From Promethearchaeota archaeon (GTDB lineage: Archaea > Asgardarchaeota > Thorarchaeia > Thorarchaeales > Thorarchaeaceae): a DNA stretch of 64,000 nt. Location of the stretch: contig WJMJ01000046.1 of assembly GCA_014728035.1 (NCBI GenBank), forward strand, positions 64,001 through 128,000, written 5' to 3'. Every line of letters starts with the position of its first letter. Position 1 is the stretch's first letter. Below are positions 42,327 to 63,682 of the stretch, one piece after another. Both the position numbers and the translations under genes were made by a program. The notes under the pieces were generated by a model. That model saw only the letters and a program-made list of their open reading frames with translations. It made no database searches and was not told the origin of the DNA.

Positions 42327-42737
42327 CTACAGTCTAATTGGATTGGGTCCAATCTTACGAATCTCCTCAGCAAATTTGTTGATTTCCGAGGCGAAGAGGT
42401 CTCCCTCTGCGGCGCTCACGAACACCATCTTCACACGATCCTCGTTGAGACCCATCTGGCCCACCAACTTTCTCGCAAACCGGACTCGGCGCTCTGCTCC
42501 CAGATTTCCAGTCTTGTACGCACAGTCTCCAGGATGGCATCCAACAACGAGCACACCATCAGCCCCTTCCTGCAATGCTTTGAGGATGAAGTTGATGTCC
42601 AGCCTCGCTGTGCACGGCATTCGGATAATCCTGCTGCTCACGTCATACTGTAATTTCATGGTTCCGGCTAGGTCACTTGCTGCATACATGCACTGCATAC
42701 AGCCGAACACTATGATATTCATATCTTTGGGAGCCAC
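42327..42737 (-). CDS. mvhD: MvhD hydrogenase 2Fe-2S subunit (stand-alone)
   Basis: FGCMQCMYAASDLAG, RMPCTAR, GADGVLVVGCHPGDC, IGPNPI; GAGGTG SD before GTG 42737. Confidence 0.92.
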   Translation of the reverse strand: MAPKDMNIIVFGCMQCMYAASDLAGTMKLQYDVSSRIIRMPCTARLDINFILKALQEGADGVLVVGCHPGDCAYKTGNLGAERRVRFARKLVGQMGLNEDRVKMVFVSAAEGDLFASEINKFAEEIRKIGPNPIRL

Positions 42738-42830
42738 TGAGAGAACACCTCGATAATACGGAGAGAAAAAGAAAGAGAGGGACATATAATCTTTCAGATA
42801 GATTACGATATCCCGTCACCCAAGGATGTT

Positions 42831-48177: not shown

Positions 48178-49188
48178 TCATTCGTTCGATGCTTTTCTTT
48201 TCCACATCCAATATGCAGGAACCAGCAATCCAAGTACCGAAAGGTTGACGATTGTGAAACTGGTAATTCCAACTTGGACAATATCACCCCATCCGGTAGC
48301 AGCGGCGAGTAATCGATTAACTTGAGATCCCACACGACTCAGAATAACCAGAAGGACCACAGTAATCGCGGTCAGAGGGCGGAGAGATTCATTTTCATGT
48401 ACCTTAGCCACAGTTGATGAAAGCCCATAGAAAAGAAGAATGGATTGTACGAGAATATCAAAGAGAGTCCATTGGGGATTTGAAATGTTCACCAGACGGA
48501 AGGTATAGAATAGACCAATACAAAACAATACAAGGACCATAAAGCTTGATTGTTCAGGGCCTTTTGTTTTATCACGAAATAGAATAGTTACAACTGGCAG
48601 TAAGATCATACCTAGCGGAAACATCAACAGAATCATCTGTTGTTCGAATGGTAAAGATTCCAGTCCAAGGAGAGTATAGGCACCACCAAAAGAAATTATG
48701 CCAATAATCAAAAAGAAGAAAAACACAACCCAATTTATAGAGGGCCTGGATTCAATCTTATTCCGAATAGATTTGCCTATATTCCAGCCTAGAAGAACGG
48801 TGAAATAACCAGTTATCAGTGCATCTCCAAATGACAGAGATACACCAACAGGAGGCCCAAGAATTGCAGTTATTGGTCCAAGCACCATAAACAATGCAAT
48901 CACAACAAAACTAAGCAGGACTTGATTACGAAATGCATTAGGTCCATTGAAAAAGAGATGTTGCCCCTTGGCCACAAGAGAGAAGATAATCAATAGTATG
49001 ATGAAATACTGAAATGAGACTACAATTGATATCGCCAAACCTTGAAAGGGATCAGTGATAATGGGATCGAGTCCTCCAAACATTATAATCCAGAGAGAGA
49101 TGATAGCTGTAGCTACAAGTGAAAGGATGAAACTAAAACTGTACCAAGTCTTTGTTAGAAGGAGTCTAAGTCCTTTAATGAATCTCAT
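48178..49188 (-). CDS. Hypothetical polytopic membrane protein
   Basis: About 9-10 hydrophobic segments. Confidence 0.7.
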   Translation of the reverse strand: MRFIKGLRLLLTKTWYSFSFILSLVATAIISLWIIMFGGLDPIITDPFQGLAISIVVSFQYFIILLIIFSLVAKGQHLFFNGPNAFRNQVLLSFVVIALFMVLGPITAILGPPVGVSLSFGDALITGYFTVLLGWNIGKSIRNKIESRPSINWVVFFFFLIIGIISFGGAYTLLGLESLPFEQQMILLMFPLGMILLPVVTILFRDKTKGPEQSSFMVLVLFCIGLFYTFRLVNISNPQWTLFDILVQSILLFYGLSSTVAKVHENESLRPLTAITVVLLVILSRVGSQVNRLLAAATGWGDIVQVGITSFTIVNLSVLGLLVPAYWMWKRKASNE

Positions 49189-49403
49189 GATGGCATTCCT
49201 CTTATGCTATGTTCTTGTAGTAATCAATGTATGATATAGACTTGTTTTGTTTATCGTGTAGCTAGCGTGCCTCAATCAAACGACTCTGCGGTGGTTAAAA
49301 CGAGATATTGTAGAGTAAGAGATGTTAGAAGTCTGAAATTATATCTACAGGTGTGTAGATAACCATTCCACAAATCTTCATCGTTATCATCTTTGATAGC
49401 AAA

Positions 49404-50357
49404 TTATGATCGTAATAAGACACTACCGAGTACAATAATGTTCACAATAAGTCCAATTCCGTATGCAACATCAATTAGTGTAATCAACGGGTTAACACCT
49501 GCAAAGACGAATAACCATGTACTGATAGTAATAACAGATAACACAAGTAGTACTAGAATAGTACGTTCACCTTTAGTGAGAGGTTTCTCATGTACTGTAA
49601 GCACACGAATCCAAAGAACGATAGCAATACCAAGTAGAGGGGGAAGAGGTATGAGAATAACGCATAGAAAAGGTAAGATAATACCACTGAGTTGAAGACG
49701 AATCTGTTCGATTCGCTCACTATAGTTTGCAAATTCCTCAGCATATACCTTCCCATATTCTTTCCAAACCGTTGATTGGTATCCTTTCCAGATAGAGAAT
49801 TTTGTACCAGAGAACTTGTCTTTGATCTTATCGATAGTGCTTTTTTCATACTCGGGGTCATATGCACCACGTATTGCAGGAATGGCGTATATCATGAGCA
49901 TAAGAGACCAAATACCATACAATAATACCAAATTATCAAGGAGGGTAACAAGTTCCGTTCCAAAGAGGGTCTGTAAAATACTAGTTGTACCAGGATTTAG
50001 TGCATTGTATATCTTATAGACCCCATAACCAACGATAACAAATACAGGAATAATTAGTAGTAATTTGAAGCGACGTGCTCTATCAGCATTACCTTTTAAC
50101 CATTCAGAGTTCATCTGAAAAGCAATCGTGCAGATGCTGGCATATGTTAGCATTATACCTGTTCCGCTGAGAAACTTCATGGAAATTCCTGATATTCCAG
50201 CAGCATACAGAAATAGTGGTGAATTGGAGAGAATAGTTGGGTTCCAGTCATTGAAAAATAGCATCAATAACAAAATGAGACTTCCAATTAGAACTGCTAG
50301 AAGGTAACTAGTACCTAATCGATCTGCAATCTTTTTTCCAATGCCACCCATAAGCAA
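49404..50357 (-). CDS. Hypothetical polytopic membrane protein
   Basis: About 7 hydrophobic segments with a central soluble loop. Confidence 0.7.
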   Translation of the reverse strand: MLMGGIGKKIADRLGTSYLLAVLIGSLILLLMLFFNDWNPTILSNSPLFLYAAGISGISMKFLSGTGIMLTYASICTIAFQMNSEWLKGNADRARRFKLLLIIPVFVIVGYGVYKIYNALNPGTTSILQTLFGTELVTLLDNLVLLYGIWSLMLMIYAIPAIRGAYDPEYEKSTIDKIKDKFSGTKFSIWKGYQSTVWKEYGKVYAEEFANYSERIEQIRLQLSGIILPFLCVILIPLPPLLGIAIVLWIRVLTVHEKPLTKGERTILVLLVLSVITISTWLFVFAGVNPLITLIDVAYGIGLIVNIIVLGSVLLRS

Positions 50358-50445
50358 TCATCCACCTTTACTAATTCCTCCGTCCTATATTAAGAGTCGT
50401 ACTGATTTCTGTGGTGTTTATACGGTAATATCGACATAAAGCTCC

Positions 50446-50691
50446 ATGAGGCGAAAACTAAAGACCAAAGTATGGGATAAAAAGCAAGCCAAGTTTGTAG
50501 AAGTTCCAATTGCAAAAAAACCAGATGTTGATTTGGCATGCTCACAGTGCAGATACTTTGAACAAGCAACTCGCCAGTGTAAAGGCATTGGATCTTGGTT
50601 TTATGATAGAGAGATCCCATATCCTGAATATGTTCCCAAAATTTCAGAGTGCAAAATACGACTCCCCCTCAACCTATTTGCATATGTATGA
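50446..50691 (+). CDS. Small basic Cys-rich hypothetical protein
   Basis: CSQC.YF....C...C. Confidence 0.5.
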   Translation: MRRKLKTKVWDKKQAKFVEVPIAKKPDVDLACSQCRYFEQATRQCKGIGSWFYDREIPYPEYVPKISECKIRLPLNLFAYV

Positions 50692-50711
50692 TTTCTTCTT
50701 TCAAATTGGAA

Positions 50712-51734
50712 TTATGTAGCTTTTCTTTTGGTTTGTATCAAACGAATTATCGACAAAACAATCAACACAGTAGGAGCAATTAGTAGGCCAGCCCACACAA
50801 GATATCCAAGAGCTCCAAACACCAAAAGATGTAACTGGTTCTTTAGCTCTGTTTTCCAAATAGGATTAAGCAATAACCTCAGAGTGAACATCCCTAACAA
50901 TAATGGAATCAGTGTAAATACGATGGAAACACCAAACTCCCAAGTCGGAATTGCGTTGGATACAACATATGCAGTCTGAAAAGCAAAAGATGCAGCGCTT
51001 CCAAGATACATAAAACCACAGAGAACTGCAATAGACCATACAGGATCACTTACAGGTAAATTGTTTTTACGAGAATAAAGGAAAATTATTCCAATAGCAA
51101 TTAAAGCAAGAAAAGGAGAGAGAGCCAGTAAGAGATTTTGTCCTTCCCACTGATAGACTTGTAGACTGTAAACTGGTACTAATATCCATTCATCCAAATT
51201 GTAGGCCTCGACGTAGCCGATTGCCAGCATATACTCTCCACCATAATTCGGATCATGTATTGCAAGATAGTAGGTTCCTGTGGCATTTGCAGTAGAATCA
51301 ATATCTACAACTTTGTAATATGTACTAGGAGTGAAACCTTCATAGTATGCGTTCTCTGGAACAACTCCATCCAAAACAAGGTAGCCACTATCAGGAGAGG
51401 TTTCCACATAACTTGGAACAGAGCTGACATTACTCACATCAGGCCCCATCAAGACCACACCAGGAGAAAAACCAGTTTCACCAAGATGGACAGGGATTCC
51501 AAGTATTAGTCGGATTCGTTCGCCTTCATTAAATTCAAAACGGAAATATTGAGCCTCTGCACCTTCGTGAAGATTTTGGTATGTGACCCAAGATTTTATG
51601 GGATTATCAATATCTGCCGCAGTATCAAGAGTTTCGCCAGGACCGGATCCAATAGGGACATGACCTACAACAAACGGGAGTGAACCTATAATGGATAACA
51701 TTACAAAAAGTGAAGCTAACTTCCAAGATTGCAT
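50712..51734 (-). CDS. Membrane protein with N-terminal extracellular beta domain
   Basis: Signal peptide, YEGFTP..Y, GTYYLAI, four C-terminal TM. Confidence 0.75.
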   Translation of the reverse strand: MQSWKLASLFVMLSIIGSLPFVVGHVPIGSGPGETLDTAADIDNPIKSWVTYQNLHEGAEAQYFRFEFNEGERIRLILGIPVHLGETGFSPGVVLMGPDVSNVSSVPSYVETSPDSGYLVLDGVVPENAYYEGFTPSTYYKVVDIDSTANATGTYYLAIHDPNYGGEYMLAIGYVEAYNLDEWILVPVYSLQVYQWEGQNLLLALSPFLALIAIGIIFLYSRKNNLPVSDPVWSIAVLCGFMYLGSAASFAFQTAYVVSNAIPTWEFGVSIVFTLIPLLLGMFTLRLLLNPIWKTELKNQLHLLVFGALGYLVWAGLLIAPTVLIVLSIIRLIQTKRKAT

Positions 51735-51812: not shown

Positions 51813-53012
51813 TTAGAAATCAGGTTCGTTCTTTAATCCCCATTTTGGAATATCTTTCATAGCTGGGTCATAGCCATCAAAAACATGACGGCTGAGAATC
51901 AGGCGCTGAATCTCACTAGTACCTTCATAAATCTGATATAATTTGGCATCTCTGAAAAGCTTCTCCATAGGATATTGATCGATATATCCATAGCCGCCAT
52001 GGATTTGAAGGGCTTCGGATGCAACCTCCATTGCAGCATCGGTCGCATATGCTTTAGCAACGCTTGCAGGAACAGTTGAGTCGCCTGTTGTATCAGCAAC
52101 CCATGCAGCTTTCTGATAGAGTGCCCGGGATGCTTCAATCTTCATATACATCTCAGCCAATTTGAATTGAATGGCCTGAAACTCCTTTAACTTTTTAGTA
52201 AATGCTTCACGTTTCTCAGCATATACTCTAGCGTACTCCATTGCAGCACGTGCAAGGCCAGTTGCAAACGCAGCAATTGCAGGGCGGGTCATTGCAAAAG
52301 TCTGCATAGCAATCAGAAAACCCATTCCTTCGGAGCCCAATAGATTTTCTTCAGGCACCTTTGCATCTTTGAAAATAACAGAAGATGTAACAGATGCTCT
52401 GTGTCCCATTTTTTCAACTGGAGGACCAGTTCTAACACCTGGTGTGTCAGCATCCACAATGAAAGCACATAGTGCTTGATGACGTTTTGTAGGATCAAGA
52501 CTTGCAAAAACAGTAAAGTAATCTGCATAGGGTGCATTAGTAATCCAAAATTTTGAACCGTTCAGAACATAATCAGACCCATCCTTTTTCACCCGTGTAC
52601 GAATTCCGGCAACATCACTACCCATATACGGCTCACTACAGGCAAAAGATACGAACTTCAATTCTTCAACGAGTGGTCGGAGGTACTTCTCTTTCTGTTC
52701 ATTATTACCAGCAACAAGAATGGGTTCAGCGCCAAGACTGTTAACATAGATGCTAGTAGTCATGCCTGCACATCCAGCTGCCATCTCTTCAACCACAATA
52801 CATTGTTCTAAGGCACCAAGTCCCGGACCACCATAATCATCTGGAATTCCAAGATTCATAAGACCCAGTTCCCAGCATTTTTTTATAATTGGAAGGGGGA
52901 ATTCACCTGTTTTATCGTAATGATGGGCATACGGAATCATATACTCTTGGGCAAAATCTCGTGCCTTTTTCTGAAGATTAATCTGTTCCTCTGTAAGACT
53001 AAAGTCAATCAT
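51813..53012 (-). CDS. Acyl-CoA dehydrogenase
   Basis: FACSEPYMGSD, LNGSKFWITN, KMG, FQAIQFKLA, QIHGGYGY, IYEGTSEIQR. Confidence 0.96.
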   Translation of the reverse strand: MIDFSLTEEQINLQKKARDFAQEYMIPYAHHYDKTGEFPLPIIKKCWELGLMNLGIPDDYGGPGLGALEQCIVVEEMAAGCAGMTTSIYVNSLGAEPILVAGNNEQKEKYLRPLVEELKFVSFACSEPYMGSDVAGIRTRVKKDGSDYVLNGSKFWITNAPYADYFTVFASLDPTKRHQALCAFIVDADTPGVRTGPPVEKMGHRASVTSSVIFKDAKVPEENLLGSEGMGFLIAMQTFAMTRPAIAAFATGLARAAMEYARVYAEKREAFTKKLKEFQAIQFKLAEMYMKIEASRALYQKAAWVADTTGDSTVPASVAKAYATDAAMEVASEALQIHGGYGYIDQYPMEKLFRDAKLYQIYEGTSEIQRLILSRHVFDGYDPAMKDIPKWGLKNEPDF

Positions 53013-53093
53013 TTTTGCTCCCTCTGAAAGCTGTCTAATGGAAAACAGTATACACAGAAGTATAAGTTACTTTTGAATTAACAGAATAGTAAC

Positions 53094-55355
53094 TTATTGC
53101 TTCTGAGAAATTTGTTTGACAACTTCAGGAAGATTCCATTTCAATTCTAAATCTAGAGCTCCTTCGTCAGGTCCCGGACATCGTCGCACACAGGTTCGAC
53201 AAGCCACACAGAGCCAGAGGTCAACTTCAACAGTGCCGAATCCAGGACTCTCTTCATTTAGAGGAATATCAAGGTCTGAACGATTAGCAGCTAGATTTCT
53301 GACGGTCTTGTAAAATAAAGATCTAGTGCTTGGAAGAGACTCAAGTTGCGATTCAGTTATTTCAAAGAATTTTGACATCTGCAAATGTGGTTTAAGCTCA
53401 ATTGCATTTTCTGGACAAGCAATCTCACAAGATTTGCATCCAAGACATTTTGACGAGTCCCAATTAACAGTTCCAAAACCAAGTATTGGAGCATACCCCA
53501 TCATTGACTCGTATTCTTCAAGAACTCGTGGGACATCCACATCTACAAGGTCATCCAGAGTTACTTTAGGACGAGTACTTGGGATTCTCGCACGTGTGCG
53601 GTAGGTCATGGAAACTGCGGATTTTATCGAGTCCTCGACTTCTGTGAGAATATTTGAAGCAATTATTTTACCTTTTACTTCAACTTTGGCAAGTTTATCA
53701 CGGGCTTTAGATATGGTTTCAAGAAGATTAGCTAAGGTACCAATATCCCTTGGTTCAAGTTCATCAACTAAGTCTCGAAGCTCGGAAACAGCAGAGAAAA
53801 GTTGTGAAGCAATTACACTAACTGTTTGAAGTGCAATTTCTGCCTCGGAGGGGGTTCTTGGTACATCATACAACAGATATCCATGCTCTTCACCAGCACC
53901 TATTAGCAATTCATCTTTTTTCATTCGTAATAAGTGCCGAAAAACTCTATCTTGGGGAATGCCAGTTCTCTTTGCGAGATCTTCCGCAGAAGAAGCACCC
54001 AATTCTCGAATAAGAACAAGTAATGTGCCACGTTCAAGTTCACTATCAAGATAGCTATCCATTATCATCTTGTAGCGTTCCGGATCTAATTTTTCACCGT
54101 ATACATTAAGACCCGATACAAGATTAGGACCCTTTTCAAGCGTGATTTTTAGTCGGAAACGAGCGAATGCTTCAAGACCCGCGGAGATGAGCAACTTAAG
54201 ATCTTCTGAATCAGAGATTGTTTGTTTTGAAATTGCTGATTCGATGCAAGTATCTACTATATCACGCAGCTCACCCATCTGATCAGATAATGCAGTTGCA
54301 TCATATTCACCCAAAATTTGAAGGCGTTCATAGAGAGACTCCAGTTCTTCGGATGAGGACTTGACAAGATCTCTGTCATCTCCTTTAACGGACTTCTTTA
54401 TTGCACGCATTTGTTGAATGATGCGTTTCAATACAAGAGTAGTTTCTGGAACGGATCCAAGCACACGAGAAAAGACAGGAGCATGATGGTCTAAACCAAC
54501 CATTTCCACCTCACCCCGTTGTATCATTGAAACAATTGCATACTGGATATCTTCAGTAGGCGTTTCCATTAGTTCTCCCAGTTCGACTACTGTTTTAGAT
54601 CCCATATTACTCAGAATGAATAGGATAATTCCACGATATAGTTCTGTAAGCACATTTTTCTTTACTAATGTAAGAAATCTTGATTCATCGATACGGCCTT
54701 CTCGCTTCCCTCTCTTTAGTTGAGCGACGGTTCTAAGAAATGGCCCATATCGTGTTTTAGTACCAAGTTTTTGTAATTTGGAGAGAGATTCATCAGGAGA
54801 TTTGTCAATATTAGGAATAATATCTGAAAGAGATGAAATTATCGTTTGGAGATCTTCCTCAGCATCAACAGCCTCTGCTTTTGCTATATCCTCTAGATTT
54901 GAAACCATAGATTCAACATCGGCAACAAGAGAGGGGATTTTCTGCAGTTGCTCTGAGATATCCGTTTCGTCTTTTGCTGTTTCAGAGTCAGTAGTTTGTT
55001 GTAGACGTTGAAGGCGATTCTGAATTAGTTTCAAGAAGTTAGCTAATACTTTCGAATCCGAATGGGAGATAGCTTCGTCAAATTGGGAAACGGATTGAGT
55101 TAGTATACCAATATCTTCTACGTCTTCCAGTAATTCCATTCTCTCAGCAGATTGAAGAAACTCATCAAAGTATTTCGCAGGAAATGACTCTATTGATTCA
55201 ATTAGAGGACTTAACCGATTTTTAAGCTGGGCTATTTCCTCTTGCACTTTACCAAGAGAAACTGCAGACTCCTCTTTGAGGCCTCCTAGAACCATTACCA
55301 TATCTAGCATTCGACGTCTTTTAGGTGCTATTTCTTTAACCACAGGACCACTCAC
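53094..55355 (-). CDS. Coiled-coil / double wHTH / 2x4Fe-4S ferredoxin protein in the hdr operon
   Basis: Helical N-terminus; two ELxRG..L...G.....L HTH repeats; CLGCKSCEIACP and CVACRTCVRRCP; overlaps the upstream stop. Confidence 0.8.
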   Translation of the reverse strand: MSGPVVKEIAPKRRRMLDMVMVLGGLKEESAVSLGKVQEEIAQLKNRLSPLIESIESFPAKYFDEFLQSAERMELLEDVEDIGILTQSVSQFDEAISHSDSKVLANFLKLIQNRLQRLQQTTDSETAKDETDISEQLQKIPSLVADVESMVSNLEDIAKAEAVDAEEDLQTIISSLSDIIPNIDKSPDESLSKLQKLGTKTRYGPFLRTVAQLKRGKREGRIDESRFLTLVKKNVLTELYRGIILFILSNMGSKTVVELGELMETPTEDIQYAIVSMIQRGEVEMVGLDHHAPVFSRVLGSVPETTLVLKRIIQQMRAIKKSVKGDDRDLVKSSSEELESLYERLQILGEYDATALSDQMGELRDIVDTCIESAISKQTISDSEDLKLLISAGLEAFARFRLKITLEKGPNLVSGLNVYGEKLDPERYKMIMDSYLDSELERGTLLVLIRELGASSAEDLAKRTGIPQDRVFRHLLRMKKDELLIGAGEEHGYLLYDVPRTPSEAEIALQTVSVIASQLFSAVSELRDLVDELEPRDIGTLANLLETISKARDKLAKVEVKGKIIASNILTEVEDSIKSAVSMTYRTRARIPSTRPKVTLDDLVDVDVPRVLEEYESMMGYAPILGFGTVNWDSSKCLGCKSCEIACPENAIELKPHLQMSKFFEITESQLESLPSTRSLFYKTVRNLAANRSDLDIPLNEESPGFGTVEVDLWLCVACRTCVRRCPGPDEGALDLELKWNLPEVVKQISQKQ

Positions 55356-57511
55356 TTACTCACTTCCATCCATTTTCCTGCTGTGCCTTTGTGAACTGGT
55401 GTTGGACCAAATTCGTTGGCACGTCGGACCATCTCATTAATCGCATTTGTGAAACGTTCAGGTTCTGCACTGAACATTCTAAACATATCAACGCGTTCAC
55501 CATTCCAACCAATTGCACTAAGGATTTCACGAGCGACATCAACTTGCACCTGAGCAATTTCATTTCCGGTCCCACCAATGTGGCAACGGTCGGTTTCGCA
55601 TGCAGCAATCATAACTGTGCTTGCGCCATTTTCAAACGCCTTCAAAATGTCAATTATTGATACTCTTCCAGCACAAGGAACAGAGATCATGCGAGTGTCC
55701 GCGGAATACTCCATTTTTTGCGTTCCTACGATGTCAATTGTTGAAACTGAACACTCTTCACAGTAAAAACACAGTGTTAGAGGAGGGTCAGGCCCAGCAT
55801 TCTCAAGTACACCCTCAATCTCACTCCAAAGTTGTTCATTATTTAGAAAATTCAATTGAGTTGCACCAGAAGGGCAAAGGCTTTGACATACCCCACATGC
55901 GTGACAATTCAGTGTGTCTATTGCCGCCTTAAACAGAATCTTCTTCGATTCATCCACAGCTTCGGCTTCAGTCTGCTCAATCATAATGGGAACACCACGA
56001 GGGCATTGTTGTGCACATAAACTACATCCCACACAATCATCTATTGATAGAACAGCTCCACGGGATAGTTTTCTTATTTCGCCACCTTGAAGCTCATTAT
56101 GTATCATGAGGGCACCAGCCTGCGCCTCTATAATTGATTCGGACACGAACTGAGGTCGGGTGACAGCTCCAACACCCACAACGCCACGACGCCGTGTTTC
56201 ATTTCTACGTAATTTGCCATATAGTTCTTTTATGTGCCCATCATCCTCAAGATGATATCCAAGAGTTTCACCAAGTTCAGACAGGCCATCGGGAGGTAGT
56301 ACTGCAGAGGAGAGAACAACAAGATCAGGAGTTGTTTCAAAGTATTTATTCAGTAACGAGTCGTAAAATCGGAGGTGAGTTCTGCCATCTTGCTCCCAGA
56401 CCAGACTTACTCTCCCACGAATATAATCTACTCCATTTTCACGAGATTCTTTGTAAATCATTTCGTTTTCAAAGGGCACACGAATGTCCATGTAGATGAT
56501 TCGAACTCGTGCATCAGAATTGTTTTTCATAATTTCTAATGAGTTATCAATTGCAAAAGTACAGCATAATTTGCTGCAATCACGTTTGTAATCCTCGGAA
56601 CGACTGCCGACACATTGAACCATTATGACCTCCTTAACAGGTTTGTCATCAGAGGGGCGTCTAAGATCGCCAGACGACAACATTTGAGAGAGTTCGTATT
56701 GAGTGACCACATCAGGATTCTTTCCATACCTATATTCATCCATCTCAAATGGCTTGTATTCTTTGAAACCCATTGCGAGAACTACAGCGGATGTCTTAAT
56801 CGTATCCTGTAATCCTTCGGATTGAAAGTGTATTGTGAAATCGCCAAGTTCGCCTTCAACAAATTTTACTCTAGTATTGTATAGAATGGTGATATTCTTG
56901 GATTTCTCGACCAATTCAAGTCGTTCACTTAGAATTTCTTTACCGGATTTCCCAGTTGGAGCAACAATTGGAAGATGACTAACATGGCCACCAAGTTCGT
57001 CAGATATCTCAATCAATGTGACCGAATACCCAAGGTTTTCAAGGCTGAGTGCAGACTCTATTCCTGCAATTCCTCCACCAATAACTGTAACATGATTGGG
57101 GATGCTCTTTTTATCAGTAAGTAATGGAGTTGAGAGTGTAGCTCTTTTTATCATACCCCGAAGCATTGCAAAGGACTTCTCGCTTGCTGCTTGTTGGTCT
57201 TTATGGACCCAGTCAGAGTGCTCGCGAATGTTGACATAATGAATAAGTGAAGGGTCTTTATTTGCACTGGTAAGGAAATTATCAATACGGGGTTTTATCT
57301 TCTGGCTTGTACACGCTGCTATGACAACAGGGCCATTTTCAACCATTTCTGCAATATTTCTCAAACCATCTGGCTGACACACCAAATCATGAATTATGAC
57401 ATCAGAGGTGTAATCTATATCCTTGACTTGACCAGCTAAAGTATCGAAATCTAGTTCTAATTGTTTACCACATGTGCAAATAATAACCGATGTCTTCTTT
57501 TCTGTCATCAT
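55352..57511 (-). CDS. hdrA: HdrA-like flavoprotein fused to ferredoxin and MvhD
   Basis: CTCG, ACT, VNIRE, GGGIAG, QCVGSR..CSKLCC, YMDIR, two ferredoxin motifs, MvhD part (FYCEEC, VPCAGR, AACETDRCH). Confidence 0.9.
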   Translation of the reverse strand: MMTEKKTSVIICTCGKQLELDFDTLAGQVKDIDYTSDVIIHDLVCQPDGLRNIAEMVENGPVVIAACTSQKIKPRIDNFLTSANKDPSLIHYVNIREHSDWVHKDQQAASEKSFAMLRGMIKRATLSTPLLTDKKSIPNHVTVIGGGIAGIESALSLENLGYSVTLIEISDELGGHVSHLPIVAPTGKSGKEILSERLELVEKSKNITILYNTRVKFVEGELGDFTIHFQSEGLQDTIKTSAVVLAMGFKEYKPFEMDEYRYGKNPDVVTQYELSQMLSSGDLRRPSDDKPVKEVIMVQCVGSRSEDYKRDCSKLCCTFAIDNSLEIMKNNSDARVRIIYMDIRVPFENEMIYKESRENGVDYIRGRVSLVWEQDGRTHLRFYDSLLNKYFETTPDLVVLSSAVLPPDGLSELGETLGYHLEDDGHIKELYGKLRRNETRRRGVVGVGAVTRPQFVSESIIEAQAGALMIHNELQGGEIRKLSRGAVLSIDDCVGCSLCAQQCPRGVPIMIEQTEAEAVDESKKILFKAAIDTLNCHACGVCQSLCPSGATQLNFLNNEQLWSEIEGVLENAGPDPPLTLCFYCEECSVSTIDIVGTQKMEYSADTRMISVPCAGRVSIIDILKAFENGASTVMIAACETDRCHIGGTGNEIAQVQVDVAREILSAIGWNGERVDMFRMFSAEPERFTNAINEMVRRANEFGPTPVHKGTAGKWMEVSK

Positions 57512-57513
57512 AA

Positions 57514-58776
57514 TCACTTCCGGCTTTGGAGAATCTTGCTGACTACTGCACGAGCCTGTGTTACACTTTCTGGTACTTCTGCAGGGCCTAGAGCGCCTCC
57601 ACATGCATAAACATGGGGGCCAATAACAATCTCATTACCAGTAGTGATGTCCTCTGGTTTGAAATATCCACTCGAAAGAGAAAGACCTAATGATTGGGCT
57701 AATTCGGCAGAACCAATTGGTGGTTCTAGTGCAGATGAGAGTACAAATAGGTCCACATTAAACTTCAAATATTTGTCAAGTAAAGAATCGTAGACAATTA
57801 CATCTATGGAGCCATTATCACATTCTTCAACCCGAGTAACTCTTCCCCGTACAAATTCAACACCAGCATCTCGCGCATCACGATAGTATTGTTCGTGTCG
57901 ATCGTAAGTTCGTATATCCATATATACAACACTTACTTTTGCAGAGTTACGCTCCATAGCTATGATATTTGCATGTTTTATTGCAAAGACACAACAGATT
58001 TTGGAACAGAATGGATAATAATTTTCATCTCTGCTTCCAACACATTGAACCATCATCACATGGTTTGCAGGTGCTCCGTCAGAGGGTCGAACAAGCTGCC
58101 CCTCAGAAGGACTATTAGGATCAAGAATTTTAGCTAATTCGAGTTGTGTGATAACATTAGATATTTTGCCATATGCATACTCATCTAGTTCAGTAGGTTT
58201 CATTTCATGATAACCAGTAGCAAGCACAACATCAGAAACGGCTATTGTTTTTTCCGTTGGTTCCGCGTCCAAAGAAATAGCTCCAGTAGGACATTCTTTT
58301 TCAGCTGTTTTTGCGCCCTCATCCGATTTAGAGGGGTTATAGATAACAGCTTGAGGTTGACATTGTGGCGATGTGAGTGAGAATGCTTTCGAATGTTTGA
58401 GACATAGACCACACATAGTGCATTTCTTAGAGTCAACATAAACTGGACCGACATCCAATTTTGCTTGGAATGTTTCACCTTTGCGGATGATATCAGAAAT
58501 ATTGGTATTGGTATGAAGTACAATATTCGGTTGATCAATCATGGCACTTCTATAGAAGCATTTTCTGATGCCGGGTCGCCAGCGATTTCCTTCAAAACAA
58601 TAAAAACAATCATCAGTGGGGAATGCTTTGTAGAGATTAAGAGAATTCCCACCAATAGTTGATAATCTATCGATAAGAATCACTTCAATACCAGAATCTG
58701 CTAGTTCGACTGCAGCAGTCATTCCAGCTACACCCGCACCGATGATAAGGACAGGATCTGCCATGGCATTCAGCAC
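57514..58776 (-). CDS. hdrA: HdrA-like flavoprotein (short)
   Basis: GAGVAG, KAFPTDDC, QCVGSRD..CSKICC, YMDIRT. Confidence 0.9.
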   Translation of the reverse strand: MLNAMADPVLIIGAGVAGMTAAVELADSGIEVILIDRLSTIGGNSLNLYKAFPTDDCFYCFEGNRWRPGIRKCFYRSAMIDQPNIVLHTNTNISDIIRKGETFQAKLDVGPVYVDSKKCTMCGLCLKHSKAFSLTSPQCQPQAVIYNPSKSDEGAKTAEKECPTGAISLDAEPTEKTIAVSDVVLATGYHEMKPTELDEYAYGKISNVITQLELAKILDPNSPSEGQLVRPSDGAPANHVMMVQCVGSRDENYYPFCSKICCVFAIKHANIIAMERNSAKVSVVYMDIRTYDRHEQYYRDARDAGVEFVRGRVTRVEECDNGSIDVIVYDSLLDKYLKFNVDLFVLSSALEPPIGSAELAQSLGLSLSSGYFKPEDITTGNEIVIGPHVYACGGALGPAEVPESVTQARAVVSKILQSRK

Positions 58777-58777
58777 C

Positions 58778-59644
58778 TCATTCAGATAGGTGTTCTAAAA
58801 TCGGGTCAGCTGAAACACGATTCAGTTCCAACCCAACCTCCTCTTCATCCATTCCCATAGATAAAGCTAAAATTTGGGGATAAAGGAGAATAGGAAGATT
58901 GTAATCTTCATTATAGGAATTCTTCAATCCTAATTGTTGCAAATCCAATTGATTCCCACAGGCAGGACATACCACTGTAGCAAACTTTGCACCCGACTCG
59001 GACATTGATTTAAGTTTGTCACGGGCTAATCTAATGGCAAGAGGTTCGTTGACTGGAAGAACTGTGGCGCCACAACATTGCTTCCAAAGTGGATATTCAA
59101 TAACAGACGCACCTGTTACTTCTACAAGCTCACTAAGAATGTCTGGAGTGAATTCAGTCACATCCAGAGGACGAAGCAGATGGCATCCATAATGAATAGC
59201 TATACCCACACCATCAAGTGGTTTCGTGACTTTCTTTCGAATCTCATCAATACCAATATCAGTATATAGTGCTTCCACAAAATGACGAACTTTGATTGTA
59301 CATTTAAGCTCCAAGTCCATCTCAGATAGTTTCTCATTGACTTTTTTCAGGTCTTCGGGAGCATGCTTCAAATGATGTAAAACATCCTTCAAAGATCCAA
59401 AGCACCCGTTGCAGGGAGTAACTATATCATATCCGTTCTTTTCGCCGATAGCTAATGTGCGTGCATTTACTACTAACCAGCCAAAGTAATCTATTGCACG
59501 GAGATTGGGACTACCACAACATGCGACATCTTCCATGTAGATTAATTCCATTCCAAAAGATTCAGCAACACGAATCATAGAAGCTTCATAATTGGGGTAA
59601 TTGGCAGGAACACTGCAACCCATATAGAGATTATAAGATGGCAT
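58778..59644 (-). CDS. hdrB: Heterodisulfide reductase subunit B
   Basis: Two CCG domains (GC...CCG...PCNGC; YGCHLL...CCG...CPAC). Confidence 0.95.
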   Translation of the reverse strand: MPSYNLYMGCSVPANYPNYEASMIRVAESFGMELIYMEDVACCGSPNLRAIDYFGWLVVNARTLAIGEKNGYDIVTPCNGCFGSLKDVLHHLKHAPEDLKKVNEKLSEMDLELKCTIKVRHFVEALYTDIGIDEIRKKVTKPLDGVGIAIHYGCHLLRPLDVTEFTPDILSELVEVTGASVIEYPLWKQCCGATVLPVNEPLAIRLARDKLKSMSESGAKFATVVCPACGNQLDLQQLGLKNSYNEDYNLPILLYPQILALSMGMDEEEVGLELNRVSADPILEHLSE

Positions 59645-59646
59645 CT

Positions 59647-60186
59647 TTATTCATCACCTGCAAGTTTTCCAGTTCTTGTGCTTTTTAGAATCAACTTGAC
59701 AGCATCAGTTGAAAGACCTGGCACTTCGGGTTCAAGTTCAAGGTCCTCACGTTCCCAATCAGCAGTCACTTGATAGAGCTGTCCTTTTCCAAGCAATTCC
59801 TTTCCAAGTCCAACTATACTAGAGGGGACTTTACCAGCTTCTGCAGCTAGATTCTTACAGTCAAAGAAAATGTCTGTAACACGAACATTCTGAGGGCAAC
59901 GCTCTTGACATTGGAAACAAGTTAGACATTCCCAAATTTCGGAACTTGAAAGGACTTCATCACGCATTCCTAGTATGATCATTCTGATTAGCTGATGGGG
60001 TTTATGATCCCATTGATTTGCAATAGGACACGCCGCAGTACATGTGGAGCAGGCGAAACACGCTGAAAGCTCCTCCCCATTTGGCATACTATGTATTGCA
60101 TCTCGGAAAGATGAATCTAATGAAGACATTTCAATTGGTTCGATTAGAGTATCTGGCACACCGGCCTTGTCTTTAGTTTCGGCCAT
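59647..60186 (-). CDS. hdrC: Heterodisulfide reductase subunit C
   Basis: CFACSTCTAACP, IWECLTCFQCQERCP. Confidence 0.95.
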   Translation of the reverse strand: MAETKDKAGVPDTLIEPIEMSSLDSSFRDAIHSMPNGEELSACFACSTCTAACPIANQWDHKPHQLIRMIILGMRDEVLSSSEIWECLTCFQCQERCPQNVRVTDIFFDCKNLAAEAGKVPSSIVGLGKELLGKGQLYQVTADWEREDLELEPEVPGLSTDAVKLILKSTRTGKLAGDE

Positions 60187-60283
60187 GATTTCACCACAGG
60201 TTTGAATGCCTGAATAGTTATGTTTGCGAACTTACTGCCTATATTTAATCTTTGCAGAGTGACAACACATTAAGAACTCAATC

Positions 60284-60824: not shown

Positions 60825-61436
60825 TTATTTTTGAGAAACTACTCTTACTGCTACATGATTATGAATCATATTTTTCGCATTAGGCGCTGGAACCGAAGCT
60901 ATATCCTCAGCTTTGAACGGACCAAGTGTGGTTCCATCGATGCCAACACTCGCCGGAACATCGGTTAGAAATTTCAATGTTATATATTCGATTTCTCCTT
61001 CGGATTCAGGTGGCTTTTCCACGATATCATCAGTTGGACGAGTTTTGGAAGCTCTGTCAGATGAAACAGATCCAGCAAGCGATTCTTCTATGAACTTACT
61101 ATGAGCTTCCATTCCTCTAAGAACGCGATTATACAGCTCTTCTTCGGAGATTGTCATTAGACCTACTGGTCGCTTTCCTGCCAAAGCGGCATCAACTATT
61201 TTTCTACTTCGGATTTGAAGCAAATCACGAATCATAAATTCAAGATTCTGAATCTCTTGAGTAAAGAGGTTAGCTTGCAATTGATTATCAGCATCAGTGT
61301 GAGCAAGAGATAGACGTGTTTTTGATAGGTAGGAAATCATGTCGCCTAATCGCAAATCCTCAAGATCCCCTAATTCATCGAATTTTACTTCGGATTTCCA
61401 AATACGATATACATCATCATAGCTTAGTTTACTCAA
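60825..61436 (-). CDS. GINS subunit (Gins51/15 type)
   Basis: R.RKIV, MTISEEELY, C-terminal B domain VGIDGTTLGPFKAEDIASVP..NA; TTG start overlapping priS. Confidence 0.88.
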   Translation of the reverse strand: MSKLSYDDVYRIWKSEVKFDELGDLEDLRLGDMISYLSKTRLSLAHTDADNQLQANLFTQEIQNLEFMIRDLLQIRSRKIVDAALAGKRPVGLMTISEEELYNRVLRGMEAHSKFIEESLAGSVSSDRASKTRPTDDIVEKPPESEGEIEYITLKFLTDVPASVGIDGTTLGPFKAEDIASVPAPNAKNMIHNHVAVRVVSQK

Positions 61437-62865
61437 GATAAGCCACTCCTTTGCATAACAGGAATACTGCAGCAGGCATCGGTAACTCCAATGTTTCATC
61501 TCCATACGGACCAAATAATTCAGAGTCTATTTTGAATGAGGGAACTTTGATAATGCCACCAAGTGTACGAACCTTCAATGTACCCGTATTGAAAGCAATT
61601 GCATCGGAAAAGGGGTTGAAAGAGTCTATTTGCTCTCGGGTCAGTCTATTAACCTTGAAACCAGTCTTGCCATTTATACTGCCAATTAGCCGGATTACTC
61701 GCTTTATGTCATGTGTGACGGGTTCGTCAATATTTGCACCATATGCTTCAACTGCACGAACCGCAATTTCTTGCCAAGATTTTTCACCCACACCTCTGAC
61801 CTTGGGACTTAGTGTTGGTGGAACTTTTTTCAAGCCATGAATGGCTTCTTGCTTACTAGCTTTAAGAGGTTTCACCCATCTTTCTGTACCCGAATAAGTT
61901 TCAATATTACGTATGAATTCAATCATTGCCTCTGGAACGCGATTTGCCCAACCTGGAACACTCAGCTCTTTGATAGCAGAGGTTTGTAAGGGGATTTTCT
62001 CAGAAACCATTACCAATGGTGTTTTGTAATCATCAGCAGCGACCTTTGATCTAAGTGACGCAGTTGTAAAACCAGTACCTTGAAGATAATGAACAATTTC
62101 GACTCGTGCTGAGGAATCAAGAGAGTATATTCGAGGATCTTGAATACGAAGGTGATATCCACGATGGCCGCTATAGTTTAGCACAATATTCTCTGATGCA
62201 AACCCAAAATCCTCTGTAAGAAAAATGTCATACAATTTCAGGGTGTTCTCTTTTGCATCCTTCAAACAATCATCGCAAATCCATTTACGGGTGCTAAAGC
62301 TCGAACCTCCACAGGAGGAGCATCCTTCAGAAGGAGGTCTTCCGAGTCCAGCCTCGTCACAATCGGGAGTGTTGCATTTCCAAGAATCATGTCTATTCGT
62401 ACAATCAGAGTCTAAATGATCAGCATCGATATCGAAAACCAATTCAGCACCTTGCCATTTTTTTTCGTGCATGAATCGGGCAACCGGAGTTTCGTAAAAA
62501 GCTGCTGAATGATATACACTATGAGGTGCAGCTTGTACAAGTTCATGCAACAGAGCATCTCTATTCTGAAAACCTAAATGGCGTACCCAATTTGTCATCT
62601 GAATTTCACTCGAGTGACAAAAAGGACAGTTAGATAATCGTACATAAGAAGTTCCAGACCGACCACATCCTATTTCCTTTTGCTCACCAGATTCGGATAG
62701 GAAAGAGCGATTAGGACATCGCCAAGTCAGAGTAAGTAGTTCCATTCCAAACTCGCGTGTATTTAGTTTAGAGGGGATATCAATAAGGTCAGCATTTTCA
62801 ATATAATAGTCTTGAAAAGTAAGCTGCAGAAACTTCTGTTTTCGTTGAATGGGATTTATCGCCAT
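61429..62865 (-). CDS. priS: DNA primase small subunit
   Basis: REFG, RH, ELVFDIDADH, YSGHRGYH, IDEPVTHDIKRVIRL. Confidence 0.95.
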   Translation of the reverse strand: MAINPIQRKQKFLQLTFQDYYIENADLIDIPSKLNTREFGMELLTLTWRCPNRSFLSESGEQKEIGCGRSGTSYVRLSNCPFCHSSEIQMTNWVRHLGFQNRDALLHELVQAAPHSVYHSAAFYETPVARFMHEKKWQGAELVFDIDADHLDSDCTNRHDSWKCNTPDCDEAGLGRPPSEGCSSCGGSSFSTRKWICDDCLKDAKENTLKLYDIFLTEDFGFASENIVLNYSGHRGYHLRIQDPRIYSLDSSARVEIVHYLQGTGFTTASLRSKVAADDYKTPLVMVSEKIPLQTSAIKELSVPGWANRVPEAMIEFIRNIETYSGTERWVKPLKASKQEAIHGLKKVPPTLSPKVRGVGEKSWQEIAVRAVEAYGANIDEPVTHDIKRVIRLIGSINGKTGFKVNRLTREQIDSFNPFSDAIAFNTGTLKVRTLGGIIKVPSFKIDSELFGPYGDETLELPMPAAVFLLCKGVAYLE

Positions 62866-62929
62866 TTTTACTGCAACTCACAATTCAAGGAAGCAAATGA
62901 AGATTGATTTATTCTTTGTATTATAACAG

Positions 62930-63682
62930 TTATCTTCTTTCAACACGTGGTGCTAAGATAAAACTAATTCTGCCAGCTTCTGCTATTGAGAATTCCATGA
63001 GAATTGGTTTGTTCGAGCTGAATTGAATAATGACACTGTCACTGGCCATAGCTTTGGATATATCGGACAAGTATGTAATTGCATACATTGATGACGATTT
63101 CTTCTTGCTCTTCAAATCACACAATGCAGATTCTTCACCTGTTTTTAGAATCACTTCAGCTTCTCCTGTGTCACTATCACCAAGAAATGTTAACGAATTT
63201 TCATCTGCAGTTATTCTGAGGTAAGTTGAAACTACACTGATGTCTTTGACAGCCTGTTTAAACGCATCAGCAAAAAGTTCAGCTTGTACATCAAACTGAA
63301 TTGAGGGTTGTTTTGTACGTTCAGAGGGAGGTGTTAAAAGCTGAAGACTGAATCTTCGCTCAGCTTGTCCAAACATTTCAATCTCAAACCGGCTATCGGA
63401 TTCGTTATGAGTGAATACAAGCTTATCATCACCTGCCATTCTCTTACTGACTTTAGTAAGCTCATCAACTCCAAGACAGATTTCTATCTCACCGTCACAC
63501 TCAAATTCCTGAAATATTGCGGCAGGTAAATCAAGTGAGATCATTGCTGCTTTTGAGGAATCTAGTTGTCGCAAGGACATTCCTTTTTCAGATATTACAA
63601 AATGAGTTTCTGTCAGTAAAGTGGCTAAAGCATCAACTATTAGTTTCCAAGTCTTTGAACTATCAAGGGTCGCATGAAACAT
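62930..63682 (-). CDS. pcn: PCNA sliding clamp
   Basis: LDSSKAAMI, F..F.C, SMYAITYL, FILAPR. Confidence 0.95.
   Translation of the reverse strand: MFHATLDSSKTWKLIVDALATLLTETHFVISEKGMSLRQLDSSKAAMISLDLPAAIFQEFECDGEIEICLGVDELTKVSKRMAGDDKLVFTHNESDSRFEIEMFGQAERRFSLQLLTPPSERTKQPSIQFDVQAELFADAFKQAVKDISVVSTYLRITADENSLTFLGDSDTGEAEVILKTGEESALCDLKSKKKSSSMYAITYLSDISKAMASDSVIIQFSSNKPILMEFSIAEAGRISFILAPRVERR

Follow-up and report, generated by a model that had tools for sequence, protein, structure and literature searches.

Here we describe X, a winged-helix and ferredoxin protein of 753 amino acids, whose gene lies in a 64,000-nucleotide stretch of DNA (hereafter the window; positions 64,001 to 128,000 of contig WJMJ01000046.1, assembly GCA_014728035.1) from a Promethearchaeota archaeon of the family Thorarchaeaceae. 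X probably has a structural role in electron wiring and docking, as a stoichiometric, non-catalytic iron-sulfur (Fe-S) adaptor of the Asgard HdrC-HdrB-HdrA-HdrA'::MvhD complex. Judged from its sequence, it looks like the detached, duplicated and extended tail of an MvhD protein, with a two-cluster ferredoxin domain gained in addition. Electron-bifurcating complexes of the Hdr type hold a central place in the energy metabolism and syntrophy proposed for the Asgard archaea, which are the closest known archaeal relatives of eukaryotes.

Results

Gene organization and translational coupling

X is encoded by an uninterrupted open reading frame on the minus strand (53094..55355, stop codon included) that begins with a GTG codon and comes fifth in a tightly packed row of genes on that strand. 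The genes before it encode HdrC (59647..60186), HdrB with two CCG domains (58778..59644) and a short HdrA of 420 amino acids (57514..58776), each assigned with Pfam and NCBIfam models, followed by HdrA'::MvhD (55352..57511), in which an HdrA-like flavoprotein is joined to a C-terminal 2x[4Fe-4S] part and an MvhD/FlpD domain. The spacing between the hdr genes is 1-2 nucleotides. The open reading frame of hdrA'::mvhD extends to 57604, a 5' extension of 31 codons that overlaps hdrA; its homologues begin at the methionine at 57511 (MMTEKK...CTCG), 2 nucleotides past the hdrA stop codon. Upstream of hdrC lies a box of the archaeal transcription factor B recognition element (BRE)/TATA type (GCAAAnTTTTAATA type; 60242..60255, minus strand), at the same distance in all 15 loci compared, which also have in common a Shine-Dalgarno sequence and, close to where transcription probably begins, a semi-conserved A/T-TTCGC.

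The initial annotation of this region had placed the start of X over the stop codon of the hdrA-mvhD gene, and the reading frame bears this out: the GTG with which X begins and the TGA that ends hdrA'::mvhD share 4 nucleotides, GTGA (55352..55355, minus strand), and a Shine-Dalgarno-like GGAAGTGA lies within mvhD a few bases upstream of the X start. Related Thorarchaeota loci show a 4-nucleotide NTGA overlap of this kind in 14 of 14 cases, and in each of them the final codons of mvhD contain a GGAGGTG Shine-Dalgarno sequence. X is translationally coupled to hdrA'::mvhD, and its position as a coupled cistron next to a catalytic subunit implies roughly 1:1 synthesis of the two chains.

Domain architecture

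Conservation along X was followed in an alignment of 37 homologues, and in a second alignment that adds Helarchaeota and Lokiarchaeota relatives at 19-25% identity; all segments given below lie on the minus strand. Residues 10-29 (55269..55328) carry the motif APKRxRMxDMxxxLGGLKEE, in which K12 and R13 hold without exception, Helarchaeota and Lokiarchaeota homologues included, and which has a low predicted local distance difference test score (pLDDT) in the monomer model; we infer that this segment is a candidate interface peptide. It is followed by an acidic helical region (residues 33-190, 54786..55259), the least conserved part of the protein, with a net charge of -21. The coiled coil originally proposed held only in part, in that the AlphaFold2 model is indeed helical here, with a clear heptad signal at residues ~28-64 only in a crude test of our own. 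A conserved basic segment (residues 191-223, 54687..54785; LGTKTRYG...QxKRGxRExRI) with a net charge of +8 then leads into the first of two units.

Each unit contains a winged helix. Winged helix 1 (residues 224-300, 54456..54686; AlphaFold2 pLDDT 71-89) is built from helices 224-251, 256-263 and 267-279 and strands 283-289 and 292-297, and is followed by a helical linker (residues 301-384, 54204..54455). Unit 2 opens with a near-invariant lead-in, SAGLEAFARFRLKITLEKGPNLVSGxNVYGEK (residues 385-424, 54084..54203; column conservation 0.94), and continues with winged helix 2 (residues 425-500, 53856..54083; AlphaFold2 pLDDT ~90), in which helices 425-452, 457-464 and 468-480 are followed by strands 485-490 and 493-497. 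The repeat noted in the initial annotation proved genuine: the two units are homologous (residues 190-305 against 380-505; hhalign probability 91%, E 1e-6, 72 columns), and winged-helix topology is modelled in both. X as a whole carries a net charge of -31. The net charge of winged helix 1 is -3 and that of winged helix 2 is -2, with the same picture for these two domains across the 37 homologues, and both wing tips are acidic (GEEHG, LDHHAP).

Three long linker helices (residues 501-590, 53586..53855) and a highly conserved lead-in (residues 591-629, 53469..53585; PSTRPKVT..DVDVP..EY..MGYAPxLGFGT) connect unit 2 to the split 2x[4Fe-4S] ferredoxin domain (residues 630-753, 53097..53468) that had also been recognized from the sequence. 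Its two CxxCxxCxxxCP cluster motifs (C637-P648 at 53412-53447 and C716-P727 at 53175-53210) stand ~68 residues apart and enclose a conserved LPxN(R/K)...PGFG insert. All eight cysteines of the domain are invariant across Thorarchaeota, Helarchaeota and Lokiarchaeota, and no other cysteine of the protein is conserved. In Pfam, residues 630-727 score 39.2 bits against Fer4_7 (cut-off 27) and 33.9 against Fer4 (cut-off 21.1), and the C-terminal domain is predicted to bind two [4Fe-4S] clusters.

Beyond the ferredoxin, similarity to curated families is slight. The MarR_2 model reaches 28.3 against a cut-off of 27 as a whole-protein score, with no single stretch over the cut-off, while TrmB (21.3 against 25.6) and MarR (16.8 against 24.6) fall below theirs; the MarR_2 and TrmB similarity lies at residues 439-484. 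Pfam gave no Rrf2 match at E <= 0.01, and X has no Rrf2-type three-cysteine sensor site. The NCBIfam scan returned generic ferredoxin-motif matches far under their cut-offs, and X matches none of the curated Hdr, Mvh, Qmo and Flx models of NCBIfam and Pfam (HdrA/B/C, MvhA/G/D, QmoC), in agreement with the earlier view that it is not a canonical Hdr subunit. PF02662 is likewise absent from X in Pfam, and the MvhD domain resides on the preceding coupled chain.

The best-conserved segments of X are the worst modelled in the AlphaFold2 monomer (Spearman rho -0.56), a pattern that fits folding at an interface or folding that depends on a cofactor.

Relatives of the individual modules

The initial annotation had noted a likeness between the NVYGEK unit and the C-terminal extensions of some MvhD proteins, and sequence searches substantiate it. 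Using phmmer, residues ~340-490 of X match stand-alone MvhD/FlpD proteins (P0147, P0156 from Bathyarchaeota, and P0158) that end in a tail of ~110 amino acids composed of FRLR, GNVYGEK and a winged helix; the X lead-in at residues 385-424 aligns with the FRLR...GNVYGEK segment of these tails. Profile comparison by hhalign with 38 such long MvhD proteins gave a probability of 99.3% (E 4e-20) for unit 2 and of 96.5% (E 8e-10) for unit 1, and on these alignments both helix-plus-winged-helix units are shown to belong to the module family of the long-MvhD tails. The FlpD domain PF02662 is present in 32 of 32 and 120 of 120 listed relatives of two such tails, and the named relatives are metagenome-assembled genomes (MAGs) of Thermoplasmatota or Euryarchaeota. 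The recognition-helix motif (V/I)(L/F)RH(L/I) is kept between the X units and the long-MvhD tails of these distant lineages. Furthermore, the order of the genes, mvhD and then X, is collinear with the order of domains in long MvhD proteins, which is a classical signature of gene fission or fusion.

The ferredoxin domain (X residues ~620-750) also occurs outside X, both as stand-alone proteins of 164-188 amino acids next to hdrA or hdrA' in other Asgard families, and fused N-terminally to MvhD in proteins of 304-322 amino acids encoded in a second Thorarchaeota hdr cluster. These relatives (E 1e-25 to 1e-30) have the same LPxN(R/K)...GFG insert and eight cysteines, and HdrA-type genes stand beside the split-ferredoxin gene in 10 of 10 loci examined. 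The second cluster (L033-L035; genomes G122, G015 and G021) reads hdrC-hdrB-hdrA-hdrA'(MvhD), a ferredoxin-MvhD fusion of 304 amino acids (L035:5498-6412), and then hdrA-hdrC-hdrB; it was not found in the source genome with X as query, which gave one match only.

A long variant of X, of 972-998 amino acids, was identified in 6 of the 59 genomes sampled from the source family (for example P0123, of 972 amino acids, and the proteins of G009 and G015), where it occupies the operon slot of X (L022 in G015:C5; L023 in G009:C16). In this variant, a GltD-like module (Fer4_20 plus Pyr_redox_2) stands in for residues ~205-415, a stretch that takes in the linker as well as the basic patch and winged helix 1. 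The N-terminal helices are retained, as is the whole sequence from NVYG on, at 58% identity. A stand-alone GltD-like protein encoded in the source genome (contig C65) is 46% identical to the insert. The idea that winged helix 1 docks this stand-alone protein was considered and rejected, as its orthologue (74-82% identity) is present both in genomes with the variant (G009, G015, G122, G190) and in canonical genomes, so that its presence or absence lends the idea no support.

Structure models and fold comparisons

AlphaFold2 modelled the whole of X with a pLDDT of 66 and a predicted template modelling score (pTM) of 0.37, with unit 1 showing a clean H-H-H-beta-hairpin topology. For residues 380-753, modelled with a more diverse alignment, the pLDDT rose to 82.5, with values of ~90 in winged helix 2 and of 83-88 in the ferredoxin. 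Thus both HTH-like units, which the initial annotation had put forward as winged helix-turn-helix (wHTH) domains, are modelled as such. In VIA-align comparisons, winged helix 2 resembles TrmBL2 (Z 9.3), a MarR-like protein of M. jannaschii (Z 9.4) and a Zalpha domain (Z 9.1, root-mean-square deviation 1.2 A over 62 residues). The ferredoxin part in turn resembles PsaC (Z 8.5) and, in M. jannaschii, the ferredoxin part of F420-dependent sulfite reductase (Z 7.6, root-mean-square deviation 1.6 A over 59 residues).

Searches for an overall counterpart returned little. A Foldseek search of the PDB with the whole model gave no match at E <= 1e-3, with weak rows for RPC62 (E 8e-3) and MarR proteins, and the model of residues 380-753 gave domain-level rows only, at E 4e-3 or weaker. 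A PDB sequence search with the X family profile matched the generic ferredoxin motif alone, and residues 1-620 found only their own Thorarchaeota cluster in the ESM Atlas (score 0.75).

Distribution and gene order

Every genome sampled from the source family had X (24 of 24 in one sample, 59 of 59 in another), with homologues at 50-80% identity. Among 1.84 billion cluster representatives, residues 1-620 matched only 39 proteins, namely Thorarchaeota forms, full-length relatives of ~740 amino acids from Helarchaeota and Lokiarchaeota MAGs, fragments, and tailed MvhD proteins. Some automatic annotations label X-type proteins as MarR, IscR or ArsR regulators.

The order hdrC-hdrB-hdrA-hdrA'::mvhD-X is constant in 14 of 14 loci from 14 genera of Thorarchaeota. 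In four Helarchaeota loci, including that of the published genome Hel_GB_B, the operon reads (hdrA-hdrA'::mvhD)x3-X-hdrC-hdrB, so that X is internal and stands directly after mvhD, with an overlap of 8 nucleotides in L036. Although gene order thus differs between Helarchaeota and Thorarchaeota, X always follows mvhD, which suggests that it has stayed tied to mvhD despite rearrangement. Homologues of X were linked to hdr genes in all of the loci sampled, as the initial annotation would have it. In Hel_GB_B only, a PIN-domain gene (L036:8404-8793) lies between X and hdrC; in the other Helarchaeota loci hdrC follows X directly.

Other genes of the window

Downstream of X lies a gene for an acyl-CoA dehydrogenase (ACAD; 51813..53012, minus strand), which is a conserved neighbour. 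The gap between the two spans 81 nucleotides here (53013-53093), with a AAAGTAACTTATA box ~55 nucleotides before the ACAD ATG. A 7-bp inverted repeat (AAGTTAC...GTAACTT; minus strand) in this gap overlaps the conserved TATA-like box of ACAD. Beyond ACAD, three open reading frames of 336, 317 and 340 amino acids (48178-51734, minus strand) match nothing in Pfam at E <= 0.01, and are kept in a sister genome (L013) and patchily elsewhere. Directly upstream of the hdr operon lie the functionally unrelated genes for PCNA, the primase small subunit and Gins51 (60825-63682, minus strand), a neighbourhood that is kept in 14 of 14 related loci.

The window also contains an orphan stand-alone mvhD/flpD gene of 152 amino acids (42327-42785, minus strand; PF02662 E 1.5e-45), whose neighbours encode a SnoaL-like protein, a DUF6265 protein and a hemerythrin-PAS protein, with no adjoining hdr or hydrogenase gene. 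Five FlpD domains were counted in the source genome in total. Two stand-alone mvhD genes adjoin genes for [NiFe]-hydrogenase large subunits, on contigs C46 (~32.4-35.2 kb) and C151 (~103.0-105.5 kb), indicating that a hydrogenase-type input exists in the genome outside this operon.

Discussion

In characterised HdrA complexes, electrons enter through a dedicated module, which is MvhAG in MvhAGD-HdrABC (5odc), FdhAB in Fdh-MvhD-Hdr (7bkb, 8rvu) and BamGHI in class II benzoyl-CoA reductase. The main hdr operon of Thorarchaeota, to which X belongs, encodes neither a hydrogenase nor a formate dehydrogenase. We propose that X would take the place that the hydrogenase (MvhAG), the formate dehydrogenase or BamGHI holds in those complexes, and that its ferredoxin domain may relay electrons one at a time between MvhD, at its [2Fe-2S] cluster, and a partner outside the complex. 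The contacts made by the winged helices, by the N-terminal peptide and by the helical arms would then be with protein partners and not with DNA. Like MvhAG, FdhAB and BamGHI, X would be a [4Fe-4S]-carrying partner next to MvhD; unlike them, it has no catalytic domain (no hydrogenase, formate dehydrogenase or NuoEF-like part), and its sequence matches solved chains through a generic ferredoxin motif alone. The long variant bears on this proposal directly, since its GltD-like FAD/NAD(P)H module, present in place of unit 1, suggests that NAD(P)H is the donor or acceptor there and that X may be the input or output socket of the enzyme. Such a replacement would make sense only for an electron-transfer subunit.

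The sole structural precedent that we found for the winged helix of a long MvhD is BamF, a long MvhD homologue of class II benzoyl-CoA reductase, whose wHTH domain is reported to interface with BamI and there holds a protein contact (bioRxiv 10.64898/2026.04.10.717634). A PDB sequence search with the long MvhD P0158 returned short MvhDs only, and no chain that covers the tail. X and the long MvhD proteins, BamF included, are alike in their winged-helix fold and in their association with HdrA-type bifurcating modules. X differs from them in being a chain without an MvhD domain, the product of a distinct gene directly behind mvhD, and in having two copies of the module, along with an acidic helical N-terminus of 190 amino acids and the 2x[4Fe-4S] domain. 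The stand-alone split-ferredoxin proteins and ferredoxin-MvhD fusions of other Asgard operons share this last domain, without the winged helices or the helical N-terminus. A looser parallel is offered by RPC62/RPC82 and TFE-alpha, proteins of RNA polymerase III and of archaeal initiation with tandem extended winged helices that make largely protein contacts; they match X weakly (Foldseek E 8e-3; Z 8.0), have no sequence relation to it and an unrelated function, and serve as an analogy only. In function, X would come closest to a BamF-type adaptor that incorporates a wire of the polyferredoxin type.

We favour docking over DNA binding because the wHTH domains are acidic, the recognition-helix motif is kept across lineages that cannot share an operator, the conserved segments are poorly modelled in isolation, and unit 1 can give way to a GltD-like module. 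Several observations weigh against this proposal. The conserved basic patch at residues 191-223 could bind nucleic acid, the MarR_2 score is barely over its whole-protein cut-off, and the closest structural neighbours of the X winged helix (TrmBL2, MarR-like and Zalpha) bind DNA or chromatin. In addition, the relative arrangement of domains is unreliable in the models of X (pTM 0.37 and 0.45), the NVYGEK motif is not conserved in Helarchaeota and Lokiarchaeota homologues, and the likeness to BamF is drawn from its description in the preprint.

A bolder form of the proposal, which we put forward tentatively and regard as more doubtful, is that X serves as a modular socket, in the place that the hydrogenase takes in the Mvh-Hdr complex. 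Its ferredoxin would wire MvhD, while its N-terminal half, composed of the peptide motif, the acidic helices, the basic patch and winged helix 1, would recruit exchangeable donors. The donor may be provided in cis in the long variant, as the GltD-like module, and in trans in the canonical form, where it could be another Hdr module or the neighbouring ACAD. The winged helix of MvhD tails might in that case represent a general plug-and-socket device in the flavin-based electron-bifurcating enzymes of archaea and bacteria.

The initial annotation had seen in X a redox-sensing, DNA-binding or scaffolding subunit that links the bifurcating complex to gene regulation. Scaffolding is well supported by the strict, coupled linkage to hdrA'::mvhD in two Asgard classes and by the homology of the X modules to segments that are joined to MvhD in other proteins; a regulator, in which the winged helices would bind DNA such as the hdrC promoter, and in which the redox state of the Fe-S clusters would switch binding such that hdr expression follows electron pressure, we consider unlikely. 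Winged-helix regulators with Fe-S clusters exist, of the Rrf2/IscR type, and X shares with MarR, TrmB and ArsR regulators a genuine winged-helix fold (Z 8-9.4), solved neighbours that bind DNA and weak MarR_2 and TrmB similarity; moreover, its basic segment is conserved, and the tandem arrangement of its two homologous units would allow a direct repeat to be read. However, X differs from both groups of regulators in its acidic domains and wings, the lack of a three-cysteine site, its place as a coupled cistron of an enzyme operon, either the last or, in Helarchaeota, an internal one, and its size, which is five times larger. Its complete 2x[4Fe-4S] ferredoxin of the electron-transfer type, with an ordinary ferredoxin fold, is unlike known sensor sites, and its units are homologous to MvhD-fused tails in distant archaeal lineages, where the recognition-helix motif is kept without a common operator. 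In the same vein, no conserved palindrome or repeat was found upstream of hdrC in the 15 loci, which were inspected by eye without motif statistics; unit 1 is replaceable by an NAD(P)H oxidoreductase module, and the winged helix of BamF is reported to contact a protein, BamI.

Two further explanations keep X within electron transfer and differ in the partner that it serves. It is rather improbable, in our assessment, that X plugs the neighbouring ACAD into the Hdr complex for an acyl-CoA- or enoyl-CoA-linked bifurcation or confurcation independent of electron transfer flavoprotein (ETF). Of the 14 Thorarchaeota genera examined, 13 have the ACAD gene immediately behind X, at 79-91% identity, and the operon offers no other donor enzyme. 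A search of the four Helarchaeota loci with X nevertheless found no ACAD, nor was it found beside X in G016, its three-domain architecture is ordinary, and etfB-etfA are encoded elsewhere in the genome (contig C25). Across loci it is set apart from X by 81-170 nucleotides with a BRE/TATA-like AAAGTGACTTATA-type box of its own ~55 nucleotides before its start, whereas the hdr genes touch or overlap. ACAD is, on the strength of this gap, the Helarchaeota loci and the separate etfB-etfA, probably a separate transcription unit. We hold it to be the least probable alternative that X connects two or more HdrA bifurcation modules, with each winged helix holding one HdrA'/MvhD and the ferredoxin relaying electrons between them. 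The three tandem hdrA-hdrA'::mvhD pairs before X in Helarchaeota would suit such a connector, as would the second Thorarchaeota cluster, where the ferredoxin-MvhD fusion has an hdrA-type gene on either side and an hdrCB pair at each end, the two copies in X of a module otherwise attached to a single MvhD, and the coupling of bifurcation modules that the BamF preprint describes in class II benzoyl-CoA reductase. Against it stands the operon in the window, with one hdrA/hdrA' pair and one hdrCB only.

A full-text search of one literature library found no description of X, and the BamF preprint does not mention it. HdrA-MvhD fusions have been noted in Thorarchaeota and Lokiarchaeota without mention of X (PMC11237513), and a study of Helarchaeota lists generic hdrABC genes, again without mention of it (PMC6478937). 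X is the only unexplained component that is always present in the Thorarchaeota hdr operon, and as such is the best candidate for its input or output module. If the winged helices of the proposed adaptor do dock proteins, the BamF precedent would extend to the long MvhD proteins of Thermoplasmatota, Bathyarchaeia and other lineages as well as to X in Asgard archaea, and would counsel caution in annotating such proteins as MarR, IscR or ArsR regulators. Furthermore, the GltD-fusion variant offers a directly testable hypothesis, namely that the complex with this variant may have an NAD(P)H-linked activity.

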